Positions 1,310 to 52,251 of a stretch of DNA of 64,000 nucleotides are shown here, piece after piece. The stretch spans positions 4,119 to 68,118 of the forward strand of contig DUPJ01000092.1 in NCBI GenBank assembly GCA_012838355.1, written 5' to 3'. Made by a program: the position numbers and the translations under genes. The number at the start of each line of letters is the position of its first letter. The stretch's first letter is position 1. The notes below the pieces were generated by a model. It was not told the origin of the DNA, did not search any database, and saw only the letters and a list, made by a program, of their open reading frames with translations. Origin of the DNA: Clostridiaceae bacterium. Its GTDB lineage: Bacteria > Bacillota > Clostridia > Saccharofermentanales > DTU023.

Positions 1310-2251
1310 ATGAAGATGCTATCAAGTCAAAAGCGGAACTCTATCAGCTACAAAAAGTGGGGCTACATCTTTCTCGTGCCCTTTTTTGTCGTATACACTG
1401 TTTTTTCGCTGATTCCGCTTTTCTCGACTGTTTACTACAGTTTTTTTGAAAACTACATGAGCGGTCTGAAACAGATCGGACCGAATTATGTCGGAATCGA
1501 AAACTACAAGACGATCCTTCTTGAAACGGATTTGCCGAAGTATGCCTTCAATACGATATTCATCTGGCTGCTTGGATTTATCCCGCAGATCGTGGTGGCG
1601 ATGATTCTTGCCATCTGGTTTACCAGCCTGAAAATAAAATTGCGATTCACCGGCTTTTTCAAGACGGTTATTTATATGCCGAATCTGATCATGGCGGCTG
1701 CTTTCGCCATGCTGTTCTGGGCCTTGTTCTCCGATATCGGTCCGATCAACAATCTCCTTGTCGCCATGGGTTATGAACGCATCAGTTTTCTCCAGAATGT
1801 GGCCGGAACCCGCGGACTTGTCGCCCTGATGAATTTTCTCATGTGGTTCGGCAATACAACGATCATTCTGATGGCGGGCATCATGGGCATCGACAACTCG
1901 ATACTGGAGGCGGCGCAGATTGACGGTGCCAGCACGTGGCGGACATTCTGGGATGTGACGATACCCTCGATCAAGCCAATCCTCGTCTACGTTCTGATTA
2001 CGTCACTCATCGGCGGTCTGCAGATGTTTGATGTGCCGCAGATTCTGACAAACAGTTCCGGCGGACCAAATCGGACGTCGATGACGATGATCATGTATCT
2101 GAACAAGCATCTGTTTTCCAAAAACTTCGGTCTGGCTGGCGCACTTTCAGTCATCCTCTTTATCGTCACCGCCATTCTGAGCGTGATCATCTACCGAAAC
2201 CTTACCGAACGGGAACCGAAGCCGGTCAAGCTGAAGGGAGGCGAACACTAA
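1310..2251 (+). CDS. ABC sugar transporter permease (MalF/UgpA-like)
   Basis: Polytopic membrane ORF with an EAA-type loop, EAAQIDGASTWRTFWDVTIP. AGGTG lies 5 nt upstream of ATG 1310; the ORF track begins at the in-frame GTG 1304. Confidence 0.9.
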   Translation: MKMLSSQKRNSISYKKWGYIFLVPFFVVYTVFSLIPLFSTVYYSFFENYMSGLKQIGPNYVGIENYKTILLETDLPKYAFNTIFIWLLGFIPQIVVAMILAIWFTSLKIKLRFTGFFKTVIYMPNLIMAAAFAMLFWALFSDIGPINNLLVAMGYERISFLQNVAGTRGLVALMNFLMWFGNTTIILMAGIMGIDNSILEAAQIDGASTWRTFWDVTIPSIKPILVYVLITSLIGGLQMFDVPQILTNSSGGPNRTSMTMIMYLNKHLFSKNFGLAGALSVILFIVTAILSVIIYRNLTEREPKPVKLKGGEH

Positions 2252-3087
2252 TGCCTGTGGACAAAGCAAACCGGGTGCTGCGCTACGTCATCCTGATTCT
2301 GCTCAGCGTGCTGTGCCTCTTTTCGTTTTACATCCTGATTGTCAATTCTACCCGGCTCCATTCGCAGATCCAGAAGGGATTCTCCATTTTGCCGGATAAT
2401 TTTTTCACCCGCAATCTGAACAACGTCCTCGCCAACAAGGAAGTGCCTGTTGTCAAGGGCATTATCAACAGTCTCTTTGTGGCTGGGGCATCGGCTTTGC
2501 TGGCCACCTACTTTTCGGCTCTGACGGCATTCAGCATTCACATCTATGAATTCCGTTTCAAGAAGCTCGTGTTTACATTCATCATGATGATCATGATGAT
2601 TCCGGCACAAGTGTCGGCGCTTGGCTTTTTGCGCTGGATGAGCAGCCTCAATATGCTGGACTCTCTTGTTCCGCTGTTTCTGCCGAGCGTTGCATCTCCG
2701 ATTGTCTTCTATTTCATGTACTCGTACATGCAAAGCAACCTGCCGAAGGCCGTCATTGAAGCGTCGCGCATGGACGGTGCCAGTGAGTTTCGAACGTTCA
2801 ATCGTGTGGTCATTCCGATCATGAAGCCGGCGCTGGCAGTACAGGCGATTTTTACCTTCGTCGGTTCGTGGAACAATTACTTCATCCCGTCACTGCTGCT
2901 GCGCTCAAAAGAAAAGAAAACGATGCCAATTCTCGTGGCTCAGCTTCGCAGTGCCGATTATCTGAAGTTTGACATGGGCCAGGTGTATACGCTGATTTTT
3001 CTGGCCATTATCCCGATCATTGTGATCTATATCCTGCTGTCCAAGTACATCGTGCGCGGTGTCGCCGTTGGCAGTGTCAAAGAATGA
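2251..3087 (+). CDS. ABC sugar transporter permease (MalG/UgpE-like)
   Basis: Polytopic membrane ORF with EAA loop EASRMDGASEFRTFNRVVIPIMKP. Its start overlaps the upstream stop (TAATG at 2249-2253). Confidence 0.9.
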   Translation: MPVDKANRVLRYVILILLSVLCLFSFYILIVNSTRLHSQIQKGFSILPDNFFTRNLNNVLANKEVPVVKGIINSLFVAGASALLATYFSALTAFSIHIYEFRFKKLVFTFIMMIMMIPAQVSALGFLRWMSSLNMLDSLVPLFLPSVASPIVFYFMYSYMQSNLPKAVIEASRMDGASEFRTFNRVVIPIMKPALAVQAIFTFVGSWNNYFIPSLLLRSKEKKTMPILVAQLRSADYLKFDMGQVYTLIFLAIIPIIVIYILLSKYIVRGVAVGSVKE

Positions 3088-3091
3088 CGCT

Positions 3092-5464
3092 ATGAATTAC
3101 GGATATTTTGACGTCGAGAATAGAGAGTATGTGATCACCAGGCCCGACACGCCGGCGCCCTGGGCGAATTACCTTGGTTCTCCGGAGTACGGCGCAATTA
3201 TATCGAACAACGCCGGCGGATACAGTTTCGTCAAAAGCGGGGCGAAGGGAAGAATTCTGAGGTACCGCTTCAACAGTGACGACAAGCCGGGACGTTATAT
3301 CTACCTGCGTGATGATGAGACAGAAGCATACTGGTCGGCGTCCTGGCAGCCCGTCGGCCGGATGAACGGCTATGAAACGACATGCCGGCACGGTCTCGGC
3401 TACACGACGTTCAACACGACGTGTGAAGGCATCGCGTCCGACGCGACGTATTATGTGCCTTTGGATCGGGATTGCGAGGTCTGGCAGCTGAGCGTGACAA
3501 ACAAGTCGGCACGATCGCGCACAATATCGCTTTTCGGTTACGCGGAATTCACAAACAACAGCGACTATGAGCAGGACGGTGTCAATCTGCAGTACTCGCA
3601 ATTCATCTCGCGAACGTATTTTGAGACAAACAAAATCGTCCAGACAATCAGTGAAAACACTGACGAGCATGTGCCCCGGTTTTTTGCTCTGAGCGGTGCG
3701 CCGGTGCGCTCTTATGCAGGGGACAGGCAGTATTTCGTCGGCGCGTACCGCACTTACGCCAATCCTGAAGCCGTTATTCGGGGTATGTGTGACGACAGAC
3801 TGAATTACAATGGGAACAGCTGCGGTGCGCTGCACACGACATTGACGCTGAAGCCGGGAGAACGAAGGGAAGTTCGCTTCATCCTCGGCGAAAACGACAG
3901 CCGCGCCGCCGACGACATTATCGCGGCGTATGCCGAAACGGGACAAGCCGATGCCGATCTCGCGTTGCTCCGGACTCACTGGGATGACAGACTTTCGGGG
4001 TTCAAAGTAAAGACGCCGGATGACAATTTCAATCACATGGTCAATACCTGGAATGCCTATCAGTGCTTTATCACCTTCACCTGGTCGCGGGCTGCCTCCT
4101 TTGTTTACTGCGGCCAGCGAAACGGGTTCGGCTATCGCGATACGGTGCAGGATATTCAGGGCATCATCCACCTCGCACCGGAGCTGGCCAAGGCACAGCT
4201 GACATTCATGCTGACGGCTCAGGTCGACAACGGAGCCGGCCTGCCGCTCGTCAAGTACTCGCATGCGCCGGGCCGGGAGGATACGCCCGACGATTTTTCT
4301 TACCGTCAAGAAACGGGACACACGTCGTATCGTGCCGATGATGCGCTCTGGCTGTTTCCGACGATCCAAAAGTATATCGGCGAAACAGGCGACATTGGTT
4401 TTTTGGACACGATCCTGCCATACGCCAATAAGGGGGAAGACAGTGTCTACAACCACCTCAAAAGAGCGCTGCAGTTCTCCCTTGACCGGCGCGGTGTGAA
4501 TGGTCTGCCGGCAGGCCTGCATGCCGACTGGAACGACTGTCTGCGACTTGGCGAAAAAGGCGAATCGAGTTTTGTTGCGATGCAGCTTTTTCTTGCGTTC
4601 AGCATCATGGAGTCGTTTGCAAAGAGAAGGGACGACCAGCCTTACGTGACCTTTTTGCGTGAGTCAAAAGAGGAGCTGGCGCGAGTGATCGAAACCGTGT
4701 GCTTTGAACAGGACCGCTATATTCGAGGCATCACGGACAAGCATGAGCGTATCGGCTCAAGCGCCAGCCGGGAAGCCGGCATGTGGCTGAATCCGCAGAG
4801 CTGGGCTGTCATATCCGGGCTGGCAGCCGGGACGCGGGCCGATGATGTGCTGGCGCTGGTCCGCGATAAACTGAATACGCCCTACGGCGCGCGACTGATG
4901 ACGCCGCCCTTCGCCCGCGCAGGATTTCCCGGTGCGCTGGCGATTACGTACAACGCCGGTACAAAAGAAAACGGCAGTGTTTTTCTGCAGACTCAGGGCT
5001 GGCTGATTTTGGCGGAGGCACTGGCCGGACACGGTAATCGCGCCTATGCGTACTGGCAGGCAAGCTCGCCGGCCGAGCAAAATAACATGGCTGACATTCG
5101 TGTCATGGAACCTTACGTATACGGTCAATTCACAGAAAGCACCGGAAGTCCGTTCGAGGGACGCTCGCATGTGCACTGGCTGACGGGGACCGCTTCAACC
5201 GTGATGGTCGGCTGCATCGAGGGGATCCTCGGGATTCGTCCCGACGCAGACGGGATTTTGATTGCACCATCCATACCGGAGCGATGGCGGAGCGTCCGGA
5301 TAGAGAAGGCGTTTCGAGGCAAAATACTGCATATCACAATCGAGAACGGCAGTGCTTCGGAAAGCGGCTATCGGCAGGTGTGGCTGAACGACAGGCAAAT
5401 CGACAGCAATTACATTCCGGCAAAACAGCTGGATGCGATAAACGAAATACGAATCATCATGTAA
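3092..5464 (+). CDS. GH94 glycoside phosphorylase (cellobiose / N,N'-diacetylchitobiose phosphorylase family)
   Basis: About 790 aa. The N-terminus MNYGYFDVENREYVITRPDTPAPWANYLG is typical of GH94 disaccharide phosphorylases. The catalytic-acid region GLHADWNDCL is present. Start is placed at ATG 3092, the 12th codon of the tracked ORF. Confidence 0.85.
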   Translation: MNYGYFDVENREYVITRPDTPAPWANYLGSPEYGAIISNNAGGYSFVKSGAKGRILRYRFNSDDKPGRYIYLRDDETEAYWSASWQPVGRMNGYETTCRHGLGYTTFNTTCEGIASDATYYVPLDRDCEVWQLSVTNKSARSRTISLFGYAEFTNNSDYEQDGVNLQYSQFISRTYFETNKIVQTISENTDEHVPRFFALSGAPVRSYAGDRQYFVGAYRTYANPEAVIRGMCDDRLNYNGNSCGALHTTLTLKPGERREVRFILGENDSRAADDIIAAYAETGQADADLALLRTHWDDRLSGFKVKTPDDNFNHMVNTWNAYQCFITFTWSRAASFVYCGQRNGFGYRDTVQDIQGIIHLAPELAKAQLTFMLTAQVDNGAGLPLVKYSHAPGREDTPDDFSYRQETGHTSYRADDALWLFPTIQKYIGETGDIGFLDTILPYANKGEDSVYNHLKRALQFSLDRRGVNGLPAGLHADWNDCLRLGEKGESSFVAMQLFLAFSIMESFAKRRDDQPYVTFLRESKEELARVIETVCFEQDRYIRGITDKHERIGSSASREAGMWLNPQSWAVISGLAAGTRADDVLALVRDKLNTPYGARLMTPPFARAGFPGALAITYNAGTKENGSVFLQTQGWLILAEALAGHGNRAYAYWQASSPAEQNNMADIRVMEPYVYGQFTESTGSPFEGRSHVHWLTGTASTVMVGCIEGILGIRPDADGILIAPSIPERWRSVRIEKAFRGKILHITIENGSASESGYRQVWLNDRQIDSNYIPAKQLDAINEIRIIM

Positions 5465-5479
5465 AGGTCAGGAAATATC

Positions 5480-6589
5480 ATGGGCAACTTTGTGCTGAAA
5501 GACATTAAAAAAGTGTATCCGGGCGACGTCGTCGCCGTCAGTGATTTCAACCTTGAAATCAATGACAAGGAGTTTCTCGTTCTGGTCGGACCGTCCGGAT
5601 GCGGAAAATCAACGGTGCTGCGGATGATCGCAGGTCTGGAAGAGATCACGTTCGGCGAACTGTATCTGAACGGCCGCCTGATCAATATGGTGGCGCCCAA
5701 GGACCGTGACATTGCCATGGTGTTTCAGAATTACGCCTTGTATCCGCACATGACGGTCTATAAAAACCTCGCCTATGCGCTCTCACTGCGAAAAGTACCA
5801 AAGAGCGTGATCGATAAAAAAGTGCGCGATACAGCAAAGCTTCTCGAGCTGGAAATGCTCCTGAATCGCAAGCCAAAAGCGTTATCGGGGGGACAAAAGC
5901 AGCGCGTCGCACTTGGCCGGGCGATGGTGCGTGATCCCGAAGCTTTCCTGCTCGATGAACCGCTCTCGAATCTTGACGCCAAGCTGCGCGCCTCAACGCG
6001 CACGGAGATTACGAAGCTTCATAAAAAACTGGGTACAACGTTTATCTACGTGACGCATGACCAGACGGAAGCCATGACGATGGCCGACCGTATCGTCGTG
6101 ATGAAGGATGGCAGGATTCAGCAAATCGGTGAGCCGCAAGCACTCTACGACTGGCCGGAAAATCAGTTTGTCGCCGGGTTCATCGGCAGCCCGCAGATGA
6201 ATTTTCTGGATGCGGTAATCATGAAAAACGATCAGGGGTATGCGGCCGTGATCGATGAGATGAAACTGCCCTTGCTCGAGAATCGGTTCAGTCCTGATGT
6301 GCTTGCCGATTACATAGGGAAGACGGTCGTTCTGGGCGTGCGAGCAGAGGATGTTGTGCGCGCCGAAGAGAACGGGGCGAGAACTGATTTGCTCGAGACG
6401 TCCGTTGAGGTGTCCGAACACATGGGGGCGGAGATTCTCGTTTACATCGATTACGCGGGCAAGAAAATTATCGCCAGATTCGATGCTGACATGAACGGGA
6501 CGATTGAAGACAATCTGAAAATCAGCTTCAAAGCCAGGAAAATTCACTTATTCGACAAAGACTCGGAGCGTTCTTTGCTTTCCAGATAG
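5480..6589 (+). CDS. ABC sugar transporter ATP-binding protein (MsmK/MalK/UgpC type)
   Basis: Walker A GPSGCGKST, signature LSGGQKQR and Walker B FLLDEPLSNLD are present. The C-terminal regulatory (TOBE-like) extension is typical of MalK-type ATPases. Confidence 0.9.
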   Translation: MGNFVLKDIKKVYPGDVVAVSDFNLEINDKEFLVLVGPSGCGKSTVLRMIAGLEEITFGELYLNGRLINMVAPKDRDIAMVFQNYALYPHMTVYKNLAYALSLRKVPKSVIDKKVRDTAKLLELEMLLNRKPKALSGGQKQRVALGRAMVRDPEAFLLDEPLSNLDAKLRASTRTEITKLHKKLGTTFIYVTHDQTEAMTMADRIVVMKDGRIQQIGEPQALYDWPENQFVAGFIGSPQMNFLDAVIMKNDQGYAAVIDEMKLPLLENRFSPDVLADYIGKTVVLGVRAEDVVRAEENGARTDLLETSVEVSEHMGAEILVYIDYAGKKIIARFDADMNGTIEDNLKISFKARKIHLFDKDSERSLLSR

Positions 6590-6635
6590 CCAGGCGATTA
6601 AGCAGCATGGCGGTCAATTCGCTATACTGCGAGAC

Positions 6636-8657
6636 ATGGATGAACACGCTTTTATCTGGCGAAAGTGGAATCTGCCCGAACCGGACGTGTCAGATCGGCC
6701 GCTTTGGGAGAAAATCCTTTGCCGCCGCGGCTATGATACCGCGGCAAAACAGCGCGCCCTGCTTCTGACGGATCCGCTCGATCCGTTTGCATTTCGCGAC
6801 ATGGAAAAGGCCATTCTGCTTATGCGCGATGTGCTGGAAAGACGCGGGCATATCGTTGTGTTCGGAGATTACGACGCTGACGGACTGACCGCCGCCGCGA
6901 TCCTTGTGCGTCTTTTGCGCCATGTCGGCGGCGTTGTTTCCTGGCTGATTCCCGACCGACTGGACGATGGCTACGGAATCAGCAGCGGGCACGTGGATAA
7001 ACTGCTTCACGACCAGCCTGACCTCGTTATTACGGTCGACTGCGGCAGCAACAGCCAGGACGAAGTGCGCCGCCTGAAAGCAGCCGGTATTTTTGTCATC
7101 GTCACGGATCACCATGTCGTCGACATGAAGCCGGATATGGCAGACGCCCATATCAACCCGCGTGAGGAACCGCATGTCGAAGACCTTCTGTCCGGCGCAG
7201 GCGTGGCCTATCTCTTGGCTGAAGCGTATCTGCAGCGTTTCGGTGAGGGTGACGGCGAGCGAGTGCTGGCAACGCTTGTTGTGCTCGCCATGGTCGGCAC
7301 AGTTGCCGATATCATGCCGCTGACTGGTGCCAACCGCTCTTTGGTTAAAGCGGGACTGGCTGCATTTCTCTCATCGGCGCCGCCCGGCCTGCTCCAGCTG
7401 TGCAAGGCCAATACTGTCCCGAATGCCGGCACGATCGCCTATTCACTGGCACCGGCCCTGAATGCTGCATCACGGCTCGGCCAGGCTGAAACGGCTTTGC
7501 ATCTGCTGCTTTGTGACGATGAGGCGGAGGCATTCCGGCTGTCCGGGCGTCTGCGCGATCTGAATGAGCGCCGGCGTGAGCTGGAGCATGTCATCACCGA
7601 AGACGCCGTGGCGCAGGCAAAGGCGACGCCGCTGGATCAGGCGATAATCGTTGTGCGCGAAGCAAACTGGCATACGGGTGTTCTGGGCATCGTTGCCGCG
7701 CGGCTGGTCGAGCGATTCGGCAAGGCGGCGATTGTGCTGAATAAGGACGGAACTGAATGGCAGGGATCGGCGCGTGCACCACAAGGCTTTGATCTTCATG
7801 CCCTGCTCACGAAGACGTCGGAGCATCTGACGCGTTACGGCGGCCATCACCGGGCCGCCGGACTGGCCGTCGCGGAGCAGCAGTTCGAAGCATTTGTGGC
7901 CGCTTTGCAGCAAAGTGCCGCAAAGCTTCCCGATACGCTGCCGCCGCTCCAGGTCGATGCGTTGCTCAGTCCCGATGATTTAAGCCAGACGGAACTTGAA
8001 CGGCTTGCCCTGCTTGAGCCTTGCGGTGAAGCCAATCCCGAACCGCTGACGGCCGCCATCGGCTGCTGCATTGTTGCTGTGCGGCAGCTGGGACAAGGCA
8101 AACATGCCCGCATTGAGGTGGATTTCAACGGCATGCCGCTATCGTGTGTGATGTTTCGGCGCGGTGATCTGGCAGACTTTTACGGGCCGGGCGATGTGGT
8201 AGATCTTGTTGGCAAGCCGGTGTGGCATACGTTTCGCAATCAGGCGTACGCTCAGCTTCTCTTATCCGATATCCGCCCGTCCGCCTGCGGTGATCCGGCG
8301 TATGATGAACCGCTTCGAAGCGGCCAGCCGCTTGACCTTTTCGCTGCGAATCCGCTGGACGCGGCGCTGTTTGAGCAAACGTACCGATTGCTTATTCAGA
8401 CGATCGGTTACGCTGAGCGGCTGATCTCGCCGATTCTTTTTGCGAAGCGGCTGAGTCGGGCTTATAATAGGCACTATTCCGGACTGGCGGTGGTGATGGC
8501 ACTCACCATTTTGGCGGAGGCCCGCATGCTTACCCTGCGGCCGACCGATGATGAACGCCATGTGCGCGTGCGGCTGATCGAAAAACCTGTCCGCACGAAC
8601 TTGCGTGACACGCCCGCCTGGCAGAATCTGGAAGCGAAAGGATGGCTGAAACTGTGA
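6636..8657 (+). CDS. recJ: Single-stranded-DNA-specific exonuclease RecJ
   Basis: DHH-family motifs are present: VFGDYDADGLTAAA, VDCG and TDHH. Size is 673 aa. The position immediately upstream of relA is typical of Firmicutes. Confidence 0.85.
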   Translation: MDEHAFIWRKWNLPEPDVSDRPLWEKILCRRGYDTAAKQRALLLTDPLDPFAFRDMEKAILLMRDVLERRGHIVVFGDYDADGLTAAAILVRLLRHVGGVVSWLIPDRLDDGYGISSGHVDKLLHDQPDLVITVDCGSNSQDEVRRLKAAGIFVIVTDHHVVDMKPDMADAHINPREEPHVEDLLSGAGVAYLLAEAYLQRFGEGDGERVLATLVVLAMVGTVADIMPLTGANRSLVKAGLAAFLSSAPPGLLQLCKANTVPNAGTIAYSLAPALNAASRLGQAETALHLLLCDDEAEAFRLSGRLRDLNERRRELEHVITEDAVAQAKATPLDQAIIVVREANWHTGVLGIVAARLVERFGKAAIVLNKDGTEWQGSARAPQGFDLHALLTKTSEHLTRYGGHHRAAGLAVAEQQFEAFVAALQQSAAKLPDTLPPLQVDALLSPDDLSQTELERLALLEPCGEANPEPLTAAIGCCIVAVRQLGQGKHARIEVDFNGMPLSCVMFRRGDLADFYGPGDVVDLVGKPVWHTFRNQAYAQLLLSDIRPSACGDPAYDEPLRSGQPLDLFAANPLDAALFEQTYRLLIQTIGYAERLISPILFAKRLSRAYNRHYSGLAVVMALTILAEARMLTLRPTDDERHVRVRLIEKPVRTNLRDTPAWQNLEAKGWLKL

Positions 8658-24039: not shown

Positions 24040-24333
24040 ATGGCAGCGCGAAAATCAACTGCAAAAAAGAAAAATGCCCCGGCGACGCATGTCTGGACGC
24101 GTTTCAGTCGCTCAAAACCGGGACGTATCATTATTATGGCTTGTGCCTTTGCAGCAGTGATCGCGATTTTTGCCTGGATAGCCGGTTCGGATATTTCGCT
24201 TTTTTTGTTGTTGACGGGCATCCTCATGCTTTTGGCCAACATCCTGATCTGGGTGATTTATCTTGCCGTGCGCGAGCGCCAGCCGAAAACGGCGGCAAAA
24301 AAAAGGACGGCCCGCAAGCAGACCGTCCGCTGA
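24040..24333 (+). CDS. Small hypothetical membrane protein (two predicted TM helices, Lys/Arg-rich termini)
   Basis: 97-aa ORF from ATG 24040 (GGGGGA SD). Hydrophobic segments are IIIMACAFAAVIAIFAWIA and LFLLLTGILMLLANILIWVIYLAV. I recognise no family. Confidence 0.4.
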   Translation: MAARKSTAKKKNAPATHVWTRFSRSKPGRIIIMACAFAAVIAIFAWIAGSDISLFLLLTGILMLLANILIWVIYLAVRERQPKTAAKKRTARKQTVR

Positions 24334-24345
24334 TCAGCCGCGTTA

Positions 24346-25572
24346 TCACAGGTGGTTTCTTTCCAGCAGTGCGCGAATCTTGACTGTCGGGTCAATGAGC
24401 GATGACAGCGATGCGTTGTGATTGATCGCGTCGATCAGCAGTGCCACAAATTTTGCCATATCAACATCGACATACCAGGGTGCCTGCAGCAGGTCAGGTG
24501 ATCGGTGAACGAGATTCGTACAGTACACGCGTTCGATCAGGCCCTCTTCATACGCCTCATTGAAGGACGTCAGCCCGTCGGTGAAAAGACCGAATGTCGC
24601 GACGCAGAAGATGCGTCCGGCGTTGTTGCTTTTCAGCTGCTTGGCCAGATCAAGCATCGATTCGCCGGACGAGATCATGTCGTCGACAATCATGATATCG
24701 CATCCGTCGACAGAGTCTCCCAGAAATTCATGCGCGACGATCGGGTTCCGGCCGTTCTTCATCACTGTATAGTCGCGGCGTTTGTAGAAGGTGCCGAGAG
24801 GGACACCCAAAATGGACGCATAATACATGGCTCTCGTGATGCCGCCTTCGTCGGGCGATACCACCATGAAACAGTCGTGATTGAAATTGAGGTCTTTTTC
24901 CTTTCGGCTCATCGCCTTCAGCACCTGATAAGTTGACGGGATATTTTCGAAGCTGCCAAGCGGGATAGCGTTGGCCACGCGGTCGTCGTGTGCGTCAAAG
25001 GTGATGAAGTTGACCATGCCGAGATTCGACAGTTCCTCGAGCATGTATGCGCAGTCAAGCGATTCTCTGGCGTTGCGCCGATGCTGGCGCCCCTCATACA
25101 GGTACGGCATGATGACATTGACGCGGCGCGCTTTGCCGGACGCTGCCAGAATCACGCGCTTCAAATCCTGGTAATGGTCGTCAGGGCTCATCCGGTTATC
25201 TTCACCGCGGAGTTTGTACGTTACGCTGTGATTCGTGATGTCGCTGATCAGGAACAGATCGTGTCCGCGCACTGTATTTTCGATCACGGCTTTGCCTTCG
25301 CCCGACGAAAAGCGAAACAGATTCACCTTGATGTGGTAATCATCGCGCATGAAGCCCGGCTGTTCGATTTGTTCCGGCTCAGCCTCCAGATACTCGCGGC
25401 GCCGCTGCACCAGAAAATGATTGATGCCGTCGGTCAAAGCCTCCGTGCCCTTCAAACCGACAATGCCGACCGGCCCGAACGGCTCCATCGGGTTTTCCCC
25501 GTACTGGTCGTATTTGTAGTAGTTTTTATTGTGTTCGCCGGTTGTGACGTTCAGATAATCAAAAGAATCCAT
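24346..25572 (-). CDS. Long-form ribose-phosphate pyrophosphokinase (PRPP synthetase) homologue, copy A (catalytic motifs retained)
   Basis: 408 aa, collinear with class I Prs: RFSSGEG, VIMPYLYEGRQHRR, ITFDAHD, VVSPDEGG, FYKRRD and MIVDDMISSGES. It has an N-terminal extension and internal insertions. GAGGGG SD lies inside the 3' end of the upstream paralogue. Confidence 0.75.
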   Translation of the reverse strand: MDSFDYLNVTTGEHNKNYYKYDQYGENPMEPFGPVGIVGLKGTEALTDGINHFLVQRRREYLEAEPEQIEQPGFMRDDYHIKVNLFRFSSGEGKAVIENTVRGHDLFLISDITNHSVTYKLRGEDNRMSPDDHYQDLKRVILAASGKARRVNVIMPYLYEGRQHRRNARESLDCAYMLEELSNLGMVNFITFDAHDDRVANAIPLGSFENIPSTYQVLKAMSRKEKDLNFNHDCFMVVSPDEGGITRAMYYASILGVPLGTFYKRRDYTVMKNGRNPIVAHEFLGDSVDGCDIMIVDDMISSGESMLDLAKQLKSNNAGRIFCVATFGLFTDGLTSFNEAYEEGLIERVYCTNLVHRSPDLLQAPWYVDVDMAKFVALLIDAINHNASLSSLIDPTVKIRALLERNHL

Positions 25573-25574
25573 TC

Positions 25575-26837
25575 TTACCCCTCATTTGTCGGCAGGAGAC
25601 ATCCCGTTTTGTTATGTTCAGCAAGCCGCGCCGCGATTTTTTCGGATGGCGCCAGCAGACGCGACAGCGATGCGCTCTGATTCAGTGCATCGATCAGGCC
25701 GGCAACATTTTTTGTCAGGTTAACGTGGGAGAACCACGGCGCAAATTGCAGGATTGGCGGACAGTAGGTCAGGTTCGTGGCGAATACATGCTCAATGCAG
25801 CCTTCGTCATGGGCCTGATTAAATGCTTCAAATCCGCGTGTGAAAAGTGCGAAGCTGACGGCACAGAAGACACGCTTGGCTCCGAGCGCCTTGATTTTGG
25901 CGGCGGCTTCCAGCATGGTCTGGCCGGTGTGAATTGCATCATCGATGATCAGTACGTCCTTGTTTTCGACATTATCGCCGAGGAAATGCTTGTCTGCGGT
26001 TTGTCTGGCGAGTCCGTCCGTCTGCCGCGAAAAGTCACGGCGGCGGTAAAATGTGCCGAGCGGCACACGCAGCGTCGAGGCATAAAAAATCGCCCGCGAA
26101 ATCGACATTTCGTCCGGCGACACGATCATCAGATGGTCCGTATCGACTTTTATGTCGGGAAAGCGGGTGAGCAGCCCGTCCACGATTTCATAGGATATGG
26201 GAAACGTTTCGAAATTGTTTCGCGGGACGGCATTGGCCACCCGGCTGTCGTGTGCGTCAAAGGTAATGAAATTGTTGATCTGCATGGAGAAGAGAATCTT
26301 CAGCATTGTGCCGCAGTCGAGGGATTCGCGGCCTGTACGGCGGTAGCGTCTGCCCTCGTAGAGATACGGCATGATGACGTTGATGCGGGTGGCCGCAGAT
26401 CTTGTCGTTTGAATCAGTCTGACGAGATCGGCAAAGTGCTCATCCGGCGCTTTTGACACCATCTGATTGAAGCGCGTGTAGTACTGTCCGTAATTCAGCA
26501 CATCGGTGATGATGAAAAGGTCGTGCCCGCGCACAGTCTCCAGCACGGCCGCTCGACCTTCACCCGTATCAAAGCGCGTCAGATCGGCTCTGATCCGGTA
26601 ATCGGCGCGAAAATAGCCTGGAAGAAGATCCAGCTGCGGGTTCTGGCGCACGTGTTGCGCCCTCAGATTTCGCATGTGATAATTGATTTGATCCGAGAAT
26701 ATCGGATCGACTTGAGTGTCAATCACGGCAACCGGCGCTCTCGGCGCCAGGTAGTCGTCTGCGAGTTGACCAAATGAGCCGTAGCGGTTCGATTGAGTTC
26801 GGTCTTGCAATGGCGAGTCCCCCATCAGTAAATCCAC
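25575..26837 (-). CDS. Long-form PRPP-synthetase homologue, copy B (divergent at catalytic-loop positions)
   Basis: 420 aa and collinear with copy A (many identical blocks: VRGHDLF, NVIMPYLYEGR, RESLDC, NFITFDAHD.RVANA, VPLGTFY.RRD). It reads SPDEMS instead of SPDEGG and RRR instead of KRR. Start is GTG 26837 or ATG 26825. Confidence 0.7.
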   Translation of the reverse strand: MDLLMGDSPLQDRTQSNRYGSFGQLADDYLAPRAPVAVIDTQVDPIFSDQINYHMRNLRAQHVRQNPQLDLLPGYFRADYRIRADLTRFDTGEGRAAVLETVRGHDLFIITDVLNYGQYYTRFNQMVSKAPDEHFADLVRLIQTTRSAATRINVIMPYLYEGRRYRRTGRESLDCGTMLKILFSMQINNFITFDAHDSRVANAVPRNNFETFPISYEIVDGLLTRFPDIKVDTDHLMIVSPDEMSISRAIFYASTLRVPLGTFYRRRDFSRQTDGLARQTADKHFLGDNVENKDVLIIDDAIHTGQTMLEAAAKIKALGAKRVFCAVSFALFTRGFEAFNQAHDEGCIEHVFATNLTYCPPILQFAPWFSHVNLTKNVAGLIDALNQSASLSRLLAPSEKIAARLAEHNKTGCLLPTNEG

Positions 26838-26877
26838 TTATATTATAGCAAAGAAAGCGCGACAGGATCTTTTGAAA

Positions 26878-47936: not shown

Positions 47937-48079
47937 CCGTCGTGTACACTGTGGATAAAGCGCTGAAGAGCCGTCATACGTGCAGGACATATTGGATTAA
48001 ATTGTGAATAACCATGTGGACAGTGTGCATAACCACCCGTTTTGTAACCGGTTGGTGTTGCCTCTGTAACAAGAAAGAC

Positions 48080-48577
48080 ATGCAGGACATGAAAACAGGA
48101 TCAAGCAACAACAAAGTGGCGGCGAACAATCGCCGCGTATATCACGACTATTTTATCGACGAGACGCTCGAAGGCGGTCTGGTTCTTCTTGGAACGGAAG
48201 TAAAGTCGATCAGGCAAGGTGAGCTTTCACTGCAGGAATCATATCTGCAGGTGATCGACGGCGAACTCTTTTTGCTTGGCATGCATATTCGGCCGTATGA
48301 GCAGGGCAACCGATTCAATCACGATCCGCTCCGGCCGCGGAAAATTCTCCTGCACAAGCGCGAAATCAATCGTCTGCGTTCGCTTGTACAGGAAAAAAGC
48401 ATGACACTGGTGCCGACTAAACTGTATTTCAAAAACGGCAAAATCAAGGTGGAAATCGGCGTTGCCCGCGGCAAGAAGCTCGTCGACAAGCGGGAAGATC
48501 TGAAGAAGAAGGATGCCGAGCGCCGCATGGCTGATGCGCTGAAGCAGCGATCGAGAGCCGAAAGCAGTATGGTATAA
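48080..48577 (+). CDS. smpB: SsrA-binding protein SmpB
   Basis: NRRVYHDYFIDETLEGGLVLLGTEVKSIR and the basic C-terminal tail are present. Start is ATG 48080 or 48089; the tracked ORF extends further upstream. Confidence 0.9.
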   Translation: MQDMKTGSSNNKVAANNRRVYHDYFIDETLEGGLVLLGTEVKSIRQGELSLQESYLQVIDGELFLLGMHIRPYEQGNRFNHDPLRPRKILLHKREINRLRSLVQEKSMTLVPTKLYFKNGKIKVEIGVARGKKLVDKREDLKKKDAERRMADALKQRSRAESSMV

Positions 48578-51871: not shown

Positions 51872-52251
51872 GGGGGCGTACAGGTTTCGACGGGGTCATT
51901 GGTCCCGGTGAAGCGGGTAGAGGATTCTCGTTGGCCTCTTTAAAAAGCGAGAACAACTTATAGTTGCCAAACAACCGCAACTCGCAGCAGCTTAATTAGC
52001 TGAAGCCGCCGATCCGTTTTTTCTGTGGGGCGGGTTATCGGCGCCATGACACAGACCTTACCCGCGGGAGGTTAAACGGGCAAACAGACGGGCCTAAGCT
52101 TTGCAGTCCGCTCTGAATTGATGAAGCTACCTGATCCATGAGCCTGCCGTGAGGCGCTTGCATTCGGGGAATTCTAAAGACACGGCTGCACCCGGAGAAA
52201 CACCGGAGGATGTGGTTTCGGACAGGAGTTCGATTCTCCTCGCCTCCACCA
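51872..52251 (+). ncRNA. ssrA: Transfer-messenger RNA (tmRNA, SsrA)
   Basis: The 5' GGGGGCG pairs with the 3' CGCCUCC-ACCA, giving a 7-bp acceptor stem with a G3:U pair. GUUUCGACGGGG follows at the 5' side. The T-arm is GGAGUUCGAUUCUCC. The tag ORF context AUAGUU|GCC AAA CAA CCG CAA CUC GCA GCA GCU UAA (51966-51995) parallels E. coli AUAGUC|GCA. Confidence 0.95.

Follow-up and report, generated by a model that had tools for sequence, protein, structure and literature searches.

Long-form phosphoribosyl pyrophosphate synthetase genes in some Clostridia form a conserved pair of a catalytic-looking copy and a degenerate partner copy

The locus considered here consists of two adjacent genes on a 64,000-nucleotide stretch of DNA from a Clostridiaceae bacterium (GenBank assembly GCA_012838355.1, contig DUPJ01000092.1, positions 4,119 to 68,118 of the forward strand; the whole stretch is called the window, and positions are counted from its first letter). 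Both genes are located on the minus strand and encode long relatives of phosphoribosyl pyrophosphate (PRPP) synthase (Prs or PRPS), the entry enzyme to nucleotide, NAD, histidine and tryptophan synthesis. The upstream gene, copy B (25575-26837), is a maximal open reading frame (ORF) of 420 amino acids with a GTG start; the downstream gene, copy A (24346-25572), is an ORF of 408 amino acids with an ATG start. As read from the sequence, the junction (25570-25583, minus strand) consists of the B stop codon TAA (25577-25575), the two nucleotides 'ga', and the ATG of A (25572-25570), and the Shine-Dalgarno sequence of A, GAGGGG (25583-25578), is situated within the 3' end of B. Coordinates and junction are as given in the original prediction, which was made from the sequence alone and described a co-translated tandem pair of divergent PRPP synthetase paralogues, one apparently catalytic and one with substituted residues in the catalytic loop. 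From this arrangement we infer that B and A form one operon and are probably translationally coupled. Automatic annotation labels both genes 'ribose-phosphate diphosphokinase', which for B is probably wrong in the catalytic sense.

The two proteins share 44% identity and are collinear across 391 residues (E = 7e-124), a similarity far above chance. They are also collinear with class I Prs in a multiple sequence alignment (MSA), as had been claimed, and all motif strings quoted in the original prediction are present. Both clear the curated cutoffs of the NCBIfam model NF005299/PRK06827 ('phosphoribosylpyrophosphate synthetase', a long form of ~383 positions; A 528.9 bits, B 417.9 bits, cutoff 327) and of TIGR01251 (A 159.7 bits, B 142.4 bits, cutoff 113). 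All NCBIfam Prs models built from canonical enzymes of ~300-330 amino acids (profile lengths 287-332) score A and B far under their cutoffs, for example NF002320 (A 108 bits, B 92 bits, cutoff 297), and neither protein has the class I architecture. The original prediction had proposed a scan with hidden Markov models (HMMs) of two Pfam domains: Pribosyltran_N passes in both copies, as does Pribosyltran; Pribosyl_synth reaches its gathering score in A only, not in B. AlphaFold2 models of A and B (predicted local distance difference test, pLDDT, of 75.5 and 87.6, respectively) match Prs from E. coli, human, Thermus and B. subtilis with Foldseek E-values of 1e-19 to 1e-21 and target-normalised template modelling (TM) scores of 0.83-0.88, so that both are predicted to adopt the two-domain PRPP-synthase fold. 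The nearest solved structures are ordinary Prs proteins, with E-values of ~1e-18 for A (best PDB match E. coli Prs) and 6e-14 for B. Neither a solved structure of any long-form member was found in the PDB nor biochemical data on one in the literature or the PDB.

Relative to class I Prs (B. subtilis and E. coli, ~315 amino acids), the long form consists of the class I core with an N-terminal extension of ~30 amino acids, four internal insertions, one of them within the catalytic flexible (CF) loop, and a C-terminal extension of 15-25 amino acids; the first two features agree with the earlier description. The reference rows of the MSA for B. subtilis Prs and human PAP39 were checked against PDB entries 1dkr and 2c4k; the MSA also had rows for human PRPS1 and for E. 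coli Prs, the core of the latter agreeing with the PDB alignment. A and B have in common with class I enzymes not only the fold, but also a C-terminal S-x-S-x-L: the segment A-S-L-S-x-L (A, 24382-24402; B, 25654-25674; both minus strand) aligns with class I Q-S-V-S-Y-L-F, which contributes to the phosphate/ADP allosteric site. By analogy, the long form may retain class I-like allosteric control.

The alignment to B. subtilis Prs (residue numbers omitting Met1) places the complete cis catalytic set in A. Its RF loop reads GRQHRR with R162-Q163 at the Arg-Gln of B. subtilis, its His motif FDAHD with H195 at His135, its pyrophosphate (PP) loop SPDEGGI with D241-E-G243-G244 at Asp174-x-Gly-Gly, its CF loop FYKRRD with K264 at Lys197 (codon 24781-24783) and R266 at Arg199, and its ribose 5-phosphate (R5P) loop VDDMISSGESM with D297-D298, where B. 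subtilis has DDIIDTAGT. The set is incomplete in B. The RF loop reads GRRYRR (R163-R164), with Gln replaced by Arg164; the PP loop reads SPDEMSI (D242-E-M244-S245), with Gly-Gly replaced by Met244 (codon 26106-26108) and Ser245; the CF loop reads FYRRRD, with Arg265 (codon 26043-26045) in place of Lys and R267 as the second Arg; and the R5P loop is altered to IDDAIHTGQTM. The His motif is FDAHD (H196), as in A. The loop lysine, which the original prediction had equated with B. subtilis Lys197, is indeed its equivalent in the alignment. The FLAG motif is present in both proteins (A RFSSGEG, Glu92; B RFDTGEG, Glu93) and includes the equivalent of PRPS1 E39. A thus shares the catalytic residues of class I Prs, a full set that supports the view of A as the catalytic-looking copy; B is a member of the family by homology, yet does not have the full set of catalytic residues.

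The pair recurs in other genomes. A genome scan with one genome per species returned at least 599 candidate stretches with an A-like gene, and 80 loci with flanks of ±6 kb were kept; the search patterns for A-type and single-copy genes contained the catalytic Lys and the SSG loop. A-like genes are widespread. In 19 of the 80 loci a second long-form gene is located directly upstream on the same strand, in two the order is reversed, and 59 loci are single-copy within the flanks. The latter are mostly from Lachnospiraceae (e.g. Butyrivibrio, Herbinix and Moryella), and their single gene is A-like. Four further B-type genes of diverse degeneracy, chosen solely as relatives of B, are all found upstream of an A-type gene with GTFYKRRD. 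The dyad is therefore found in each of the 25 cases examined besides the window (B upstream in 19, order reversed in two, selection via B alone in four), a survey of the kind that the original prediction had called for, and the degenerate partner type was found only adjacent to the catalytic type. The hosts in this sample are Clostridia, either uncultured metagenome-assembled genomes or poorly studied taxa. The same-strand gap between the maximal ORFs is 9-66 nucleotides in 17 of the 19 B-upstream dyads, a count that leaves out the two dyads whose maximal ORFs overlap. As in the window, the dyads have engB-comEC-holA on one side; on the other, most of them have rqcH-queH-ruvB.

The residue patterns of A and B are likewise shared by their relatives. 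Among the 120 best database relatives of A, the motifs RFSSGEG, RQH[KR]R, FDAHD, SPDEG[GA]I, FYKRRD and VDDMISSG[ED]SM are nearly invariant, which bears out the description of A as apparently catalytic; they are also intact in the four A partners found without a Lys-containing search pattern. All of the 118 closest relatives of B (100%) keep the FLAG Arg, Gly, Glu and Gly, and all have at least one catalytic-site change. The RF-loop Gln is still present in 40% of them and the PP-loop Gly in 9%; the catalytic Lys survives in 3%, the position being otherwise occupied by Arg, Ser, His, Met or Asn. In the partner copies of the genome scan, neither the catalytic Lys nor the first PP-loop Gly is ever present; the Lys position is occupied by Arg in 76%, otherwise by His, Met or Thr. 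Some partner copies additionally lack the PP-loop Asp, the first R5P-loop Asp or, in one locus (L003), the His. The R5P loop of B-types consistently reads I-[VNDH]-[ST]-G-x-T, as against I-S-S-G-[ED]-S in A-types. A-type and single-copy proteins have 115 invariant positions in common, of which the 21 partner copies keep 60 and lose 29. The kept positions (A numbering) comprise R87, G91, E92 and K94 of FLAG, R162, D193, H195, D196 and D298; the lost ones include Q163, H164, G243, K264, R265, R275, N276, H281, E282, S301 and S305, and among them are five residues of the catalytic-loop insertion. The substitutions for which B was first singled out, at the PP-loop glycines and the loop lysine, are hence confirmed and are accompanied by loss of the RF-loop Gln and of several invariant CF-loop residues.

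The two copies evolve at different rates. Over 171 species pairs the mean identity is 69% for A orthologues and 49% for partner copies, with A more conserved than its partner in 99% of the pairs. In a neighbour-joining tree, A-type and single-copy proteins form one short-branched clade and partner copies form long branches, with B sub-groups mirroring the sub-groups of their A partners. The tree indicates a duplication internal to the bacterial long-form family and is compatible with one as well as with several such events. Faster evolution and lost catalytic residues are what a decaying duplicate would show, that is, a functionless pseudogene in the making. We consider this reading hardly credible, and it is effectively refuted by selection and conservation: the ORF of B is intact in every genome examined; the ratio of nonsynonymous to synonymous substitution rates (dN/dS) of partner copies is 0.05-0.15 in pairs with unsaturated dS, which denotes purifying selection; pair and synteny persist between lineages with A proteins as far apart as ~64% identity; and the AlphaFold2 model of B is of high confidence.

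The positions that B retains can be related to the architecture of known PRPS active sites. In PRPS, the FLAG of one subunit binds the ATP adenine in the adjacent active site, whereas the RF, PP, CF and R5P loops act in cis; the PRPS-associated proteins (PRPSAPs) have lost cis residues and retain FLAG, which suggests a functional dimer with a catalytic subunit (both points PMC12238573 and PMC13252144). B-types show this published split, and we therefore propose that A and B co-assemble. A would be the catalytic subunit, transferring the beta,gamma-diphosphoryl group from ATP onto C1 of ribose 5-phosphate by means of the class I Prs residues. B would be a duplicate whose own (cis) catalytic apparatus has been lost or weakened, with fold and FLAG kept. 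In an A:B dimer, the FLAG of B would complete the active site of A by holding the ATP adenine, and the site of B itself would be a non-turnover or nucleotide-binding site, making B a structural, regulatory or assembly subunit. We assign a probability of roughly 0.55 to this reading, in which the B-A operon encodes a heteromeric long-form PRPP synthase whose B subunit is impaired in catalysis and probably regulatory. A broader proposal goes further and is tentative, somewhat short of even odds: that an order-level Clostridia lineage (including Saccharofermentans and Mageeibacillus relatives, many of which come from rumen or anaerobic digesters) makes PRPP by an obligate A+B enzyme, in which B donates FLAG and its dead site has become regulatory, the first PRPS pseudoenzyme of bacteria and convergent with PRPS-PRPSAP.

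The closest parallel is provided by mammalian PRPS1/2 and PRPSAP1/2 (PAP39/PAP41), likewise a catalytic PRPP synthase together with a paralogue of the same fold. PRPSAP1/2 are thought to be structural or regulatory in mammals, and the same reasoning from cis loss and FLAG retention has been published for PRPSAP2 (PMC12238573). Like B, the PRPSAPs lack the glycines of the PP loop, the Lys of the catalytic loop and parts of the R5P loop as a result of loss, have kept the trans-acting FLAG, and stem from a duplication followed by faster divergence. In the MSA the resemblance proves stronger than the original prediction could tell: PAP39 lacks Gly-Gly, Lys/Arg and T-x-G-T (its R5P loop reads DDIIDDVES), and FLAG is kept in all 118 B relatives. 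B thus follows the PRPSAP-type pattern of PRPS fold, lost cis residues and retained FLAG. In contrast to the PRPSAPs, B keeps the second loop Arg, and its catalytic loop lacks the large insertion. Neither is B an orthologue of the PRPSAPs: it is 44% identical to A and, in structural alignments, only ~16-21% identical to human PRPS1/PAP39 (~18% to PAP39), and its sequence matches 2c4k with an E-value of only 4e-5. B is of independent origin and not a member of the PRPSAP family; by analogy, it would be PRPSAP-like in its working. The B-A pair further differs from PRPS/PRPSAP in that it is bacterial, operonic, probably translationally coupled and on a long-form (~400 amino acids) instead of a class I scaffold, and in that the association of A with B is a predicted one.

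Several points weigh against the heteromeric reading. Association of A with B and inactivity of B are inferred from operon structure, co-inheritance and FLAG retention. In the B protein of the window degeneration is no more than moderate, with His196, Asp242, Arg267 and the Asp-Asp pair all still in place. The change in its catalytic loop is the conservative Lys-to-Arg, whose effect has to our knowledge never been measured, only alanine substitutions being known; with Arg in 76% of partner copies, the Arg could be functional. The lost positions are not clearly concentrated in the cis loops (Fisher test; odds ratio 1.9, p = 0.18 at a lenient cut of <60% retained), and the enrichment at a stricter, post-hoc cut of <=15% retained is statistically weak (odds ratio 5.3, p = 0.03); the argument therefore rests on the identity of the lost residues and not on this statistic. 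The invariance of A-types at Lys and SSG in the genome-scan sample is partly by construction, a bias that is offset by the 120 best relatives of A and the four A partners found via B. Finally, a canonical prs was found neither in the 64-kb window nor within ±6 kb of the 80 genome-scan loci; the physiological role of the pair would change if dyad genomes also carry one.

Some of these points would also fit a pair of active isozymes, in which A and B are both PRPP synthases that differ in kinetics or allostery and form separate homo-oligomers or an all-catalytic mixed oligomer. B clears the same curated HMM cutoffs as A, retains the C-terminal S-L-S besides the catalytic-site residues just named, and is under strong purifying selection; its conservative Arg is moreover the commonest state among partner copies. 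We nevertheless regard such isozymes as unlikely, at something like one chance in a handful, because the catalytic Lys, which does not vary among A-type and single-copy proteins, is found in only 3% of B relatives, and because the varied further losses (PP-loop Asp, first R5P Asp and the His of L003) fit relaxed catalytic constraint. For B. subtilis Prs, catalysis is reportedly abolished by the Lys197Ala substitution (Hove-Jensen 2005, as cited in PMC12238573).

Alternatively, B may have kept the fold and taken on a new function, acting on another diphosphate acceptor or as a PRPP/nucleotide sensor independently of A, with adjacency reflecting co-regulation only. That enzymes of the PRPS fold can switch substrate is illustrated by phage Adps, an ADP-ribose diphosphokinase of the NARP1 pathway that makes ADP-ribose pyrophosphate (ADPR-PP); it has a PRPS-like fold, forms a hexamer and transfers a diphosphoryl group from ATP (PMC13586617). 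The consistent difference between the R5P loops of B and A would also be in keeping with a new specificity. Adps, however, is a protein of ~280 amino acids, phage-encoded beside Namat, with an essential Lys185 (PMC13586617), whereas B-types lack this Lys, and A and B (408 and 420 amino acids) lie among chromosomal housekeeping genes and do not belong to the Adps family. Nor is the neighbourhood a phage, defence or salvage island. B-specific conservation is confined to five positions of the partner copies, of which a single one (Lys to Arg) belongs to a functional site; a new specificity would be expected to leave a conserved signature, and this scarcity of B-specific residues argues for loss rather than new chemistry. 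Complete retention of a trans-acting FLAG is, in addition, hard to explain without the active site of a partner. We judge a function independent of A to be improbable. The different pyrophosphorylated product that the original prediction had offered as its alternative is disfavoured on the same grounds, as the only known PRPS-fold enzyme of this kind, Adps, needs the catalytic Lys.

Obligate heteromers of several PRPS paralogues, some with insertions, are known from yeast, where they are assembled from Prs1-Prs5; these are eukaryotic, encoded by unlinked genes and composed of class I-derived subunits, in contrast to A and B. The regulatory-loop expansion of yeast Prs5 is mentioned in PMC12238573. 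The same source describes a single expressed PRPS as typical of bacteria and archaea, and multiple PRPS genes as a eukaryotic hallmark. A 2026 preprint (PMC13252144) distinguishes bacterial PRPS classes I, II and IV-XI and 37 pseudoenzyme origins, all of them eukaryotic; the long form is probably one of its new classes. A literature search returned no paper that mentions PRK06827 and no paper on a bacterial PRPS pseudoenzyme or heteromer, in line with the original statement that such a pair was not known to have been described in bacteria. An arrangement known from eukaryotes thus has a new, bacterial version in this pair, built on an annotated but uncharacterised scaffold. The name of the family NF005299/PRK06827 implies one enzyme; here, two types can be told apart within the family, one conserved and catalytic, the other a degenerate partner. 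If the heteromeric reading is true, a conserved bacterial operon of a catalytic and a degenerate PRPS would be a counter-example to the eukaryotic-hallmark view, and the solution of an enzyme plus a dead paralogue would have evolved convergently. The pair would then also provide an easily expressed two-gene model for the role of the partner subunit, be it trans completion of the active site, allosteric tuning or assembly control, a question not yet settled in the mammalian case.

With respect to the transcription unit, a terminator scan identified an intrinsic-terminator-like hairpin at 24297-24328 (minus strand; 10-bp stem with 7 G-C pairs, 4-nucleotide loop, followed by T8) that starts 18 nucleotides past the stop codon of A and marks the end of the B-A unit; no terminator-like site of comparable strength was detected at the B-A junction. 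At the other end, the divergent spacer of ~50 bp between B and engB contains, as read from the sequence, an extended -10-like element, TGcTATAAT (26842-26850, minus strand), a possible if weak candidate for the B-A promoter. It is located only 5-17 nucleotides upstream of the two candidate start codons of B, hence either the leader is very short or absent, or the true promoter is farther upstream. A consensus promoter scan of the minus strand found no full -35/-10 match and no convincing sigma-70 promoter upstream of B, and a search of the whole window against Rfam at the gathering threshold found no riboswitch or leader near the pair. The start of B differs by source, GTG 26837 (420 amino acids) in the maximal ORF and ATG 26825 (416 amino acids) in one public gene prediction. 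For HHU12675.1, a close B homologue that falls into the same cluster at 90% identity, the annotated length is only 383 amino acids. The motifs of B are unaffected by any choice of start codon.

A 65-residue hydrophobic ORF (24136-24333, plus strand), which the public record lists as a gene, runs convergently towards A, and its final codons are the complement of the terminator hairpin of A. The hairpin may terminate transcription in both directions, or the ORF may not be a real gene.

The A-types of dyad genomes (the window, and loci L003-L019) also share an N-terminal motif, K-N-Y-Y-x-Y-[DN]-Q-Y-G-x-N-x-M (A residues 16-29; 25486-25527, minus strand), in which Y18, Y21, Q23, G25, N27 and M29 are invariant. 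Neither the single-copy long-form Prs of Lachnospiraceae nor most partner copies carry the motif, which AlphaFold2 predicts to be disordered (pLDDT <50). It could represent a docking element specific to two-subunit enzymes.

The organization of the locus varies to some extent. In the two reversed dyads (L020, 2241-4884; L021, 121-2580) the A-like copy (FYKRRD, SPDEG[GA]) comes first and the degenerate copy follows 40-90 nucleotides downstream, reading FYRQRD, S[ST]DE[TR]GM and FDPHD; this order suggests a rearrangement or an independent duplication. In six dyads (L009-L011 and L013-L015, ~2300-4700 in each) engB immediately precedes the B-type gene in the same orientation, as opposed to its divergent orientation in the window and the other dyads, and the transcription unit of this sub-lineage may include engB. 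In four Lachnospiraceae loci (L022, L030, L040 and L064, ~1500-7200) the single long-form prs directly follows a conserved run of same-strand genes for a Mur ligase, a DnaB_2 protein (DnaD/DnaB-like) and a DnaI-like protein (IstB/DnaA ATPase). This single-copy neighbourhood differs from the engB/rqcH neighbourhood of the dyads; both are of the housekeeping kind.

Two over-long proteins were discarded as probable metagenome assembly artefacts. The first, P0007 (593 amino acids; L084, 2278-4059), was considered as a fusion of long-form Prs and uracil phosphoribosyltransferase (UPRTase), which would have spoken for PRPP as the product, and rejected, as its Prs core is repeated internally and exactly; the precomputed 'UPRTase' label reflects a faint phosphoribosyltransferase cross-match only. 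P0007 is otherwise of the Lachnospiraceae type and reads YYRRLD, with Arg at the catalytic Lys position. The second, P0085 (515 amino acids), is likewise over-long through an internal repeat of the Prs core.

Elsewhere in the window, the only Rfam match at the gathering threshold is a full-length transfer-messenger RNA (tmRNA) gene (51872-52251, plus strand; RF00023, 158 bits), which is found ~3 kb downstream of smpB (~48014-48577).

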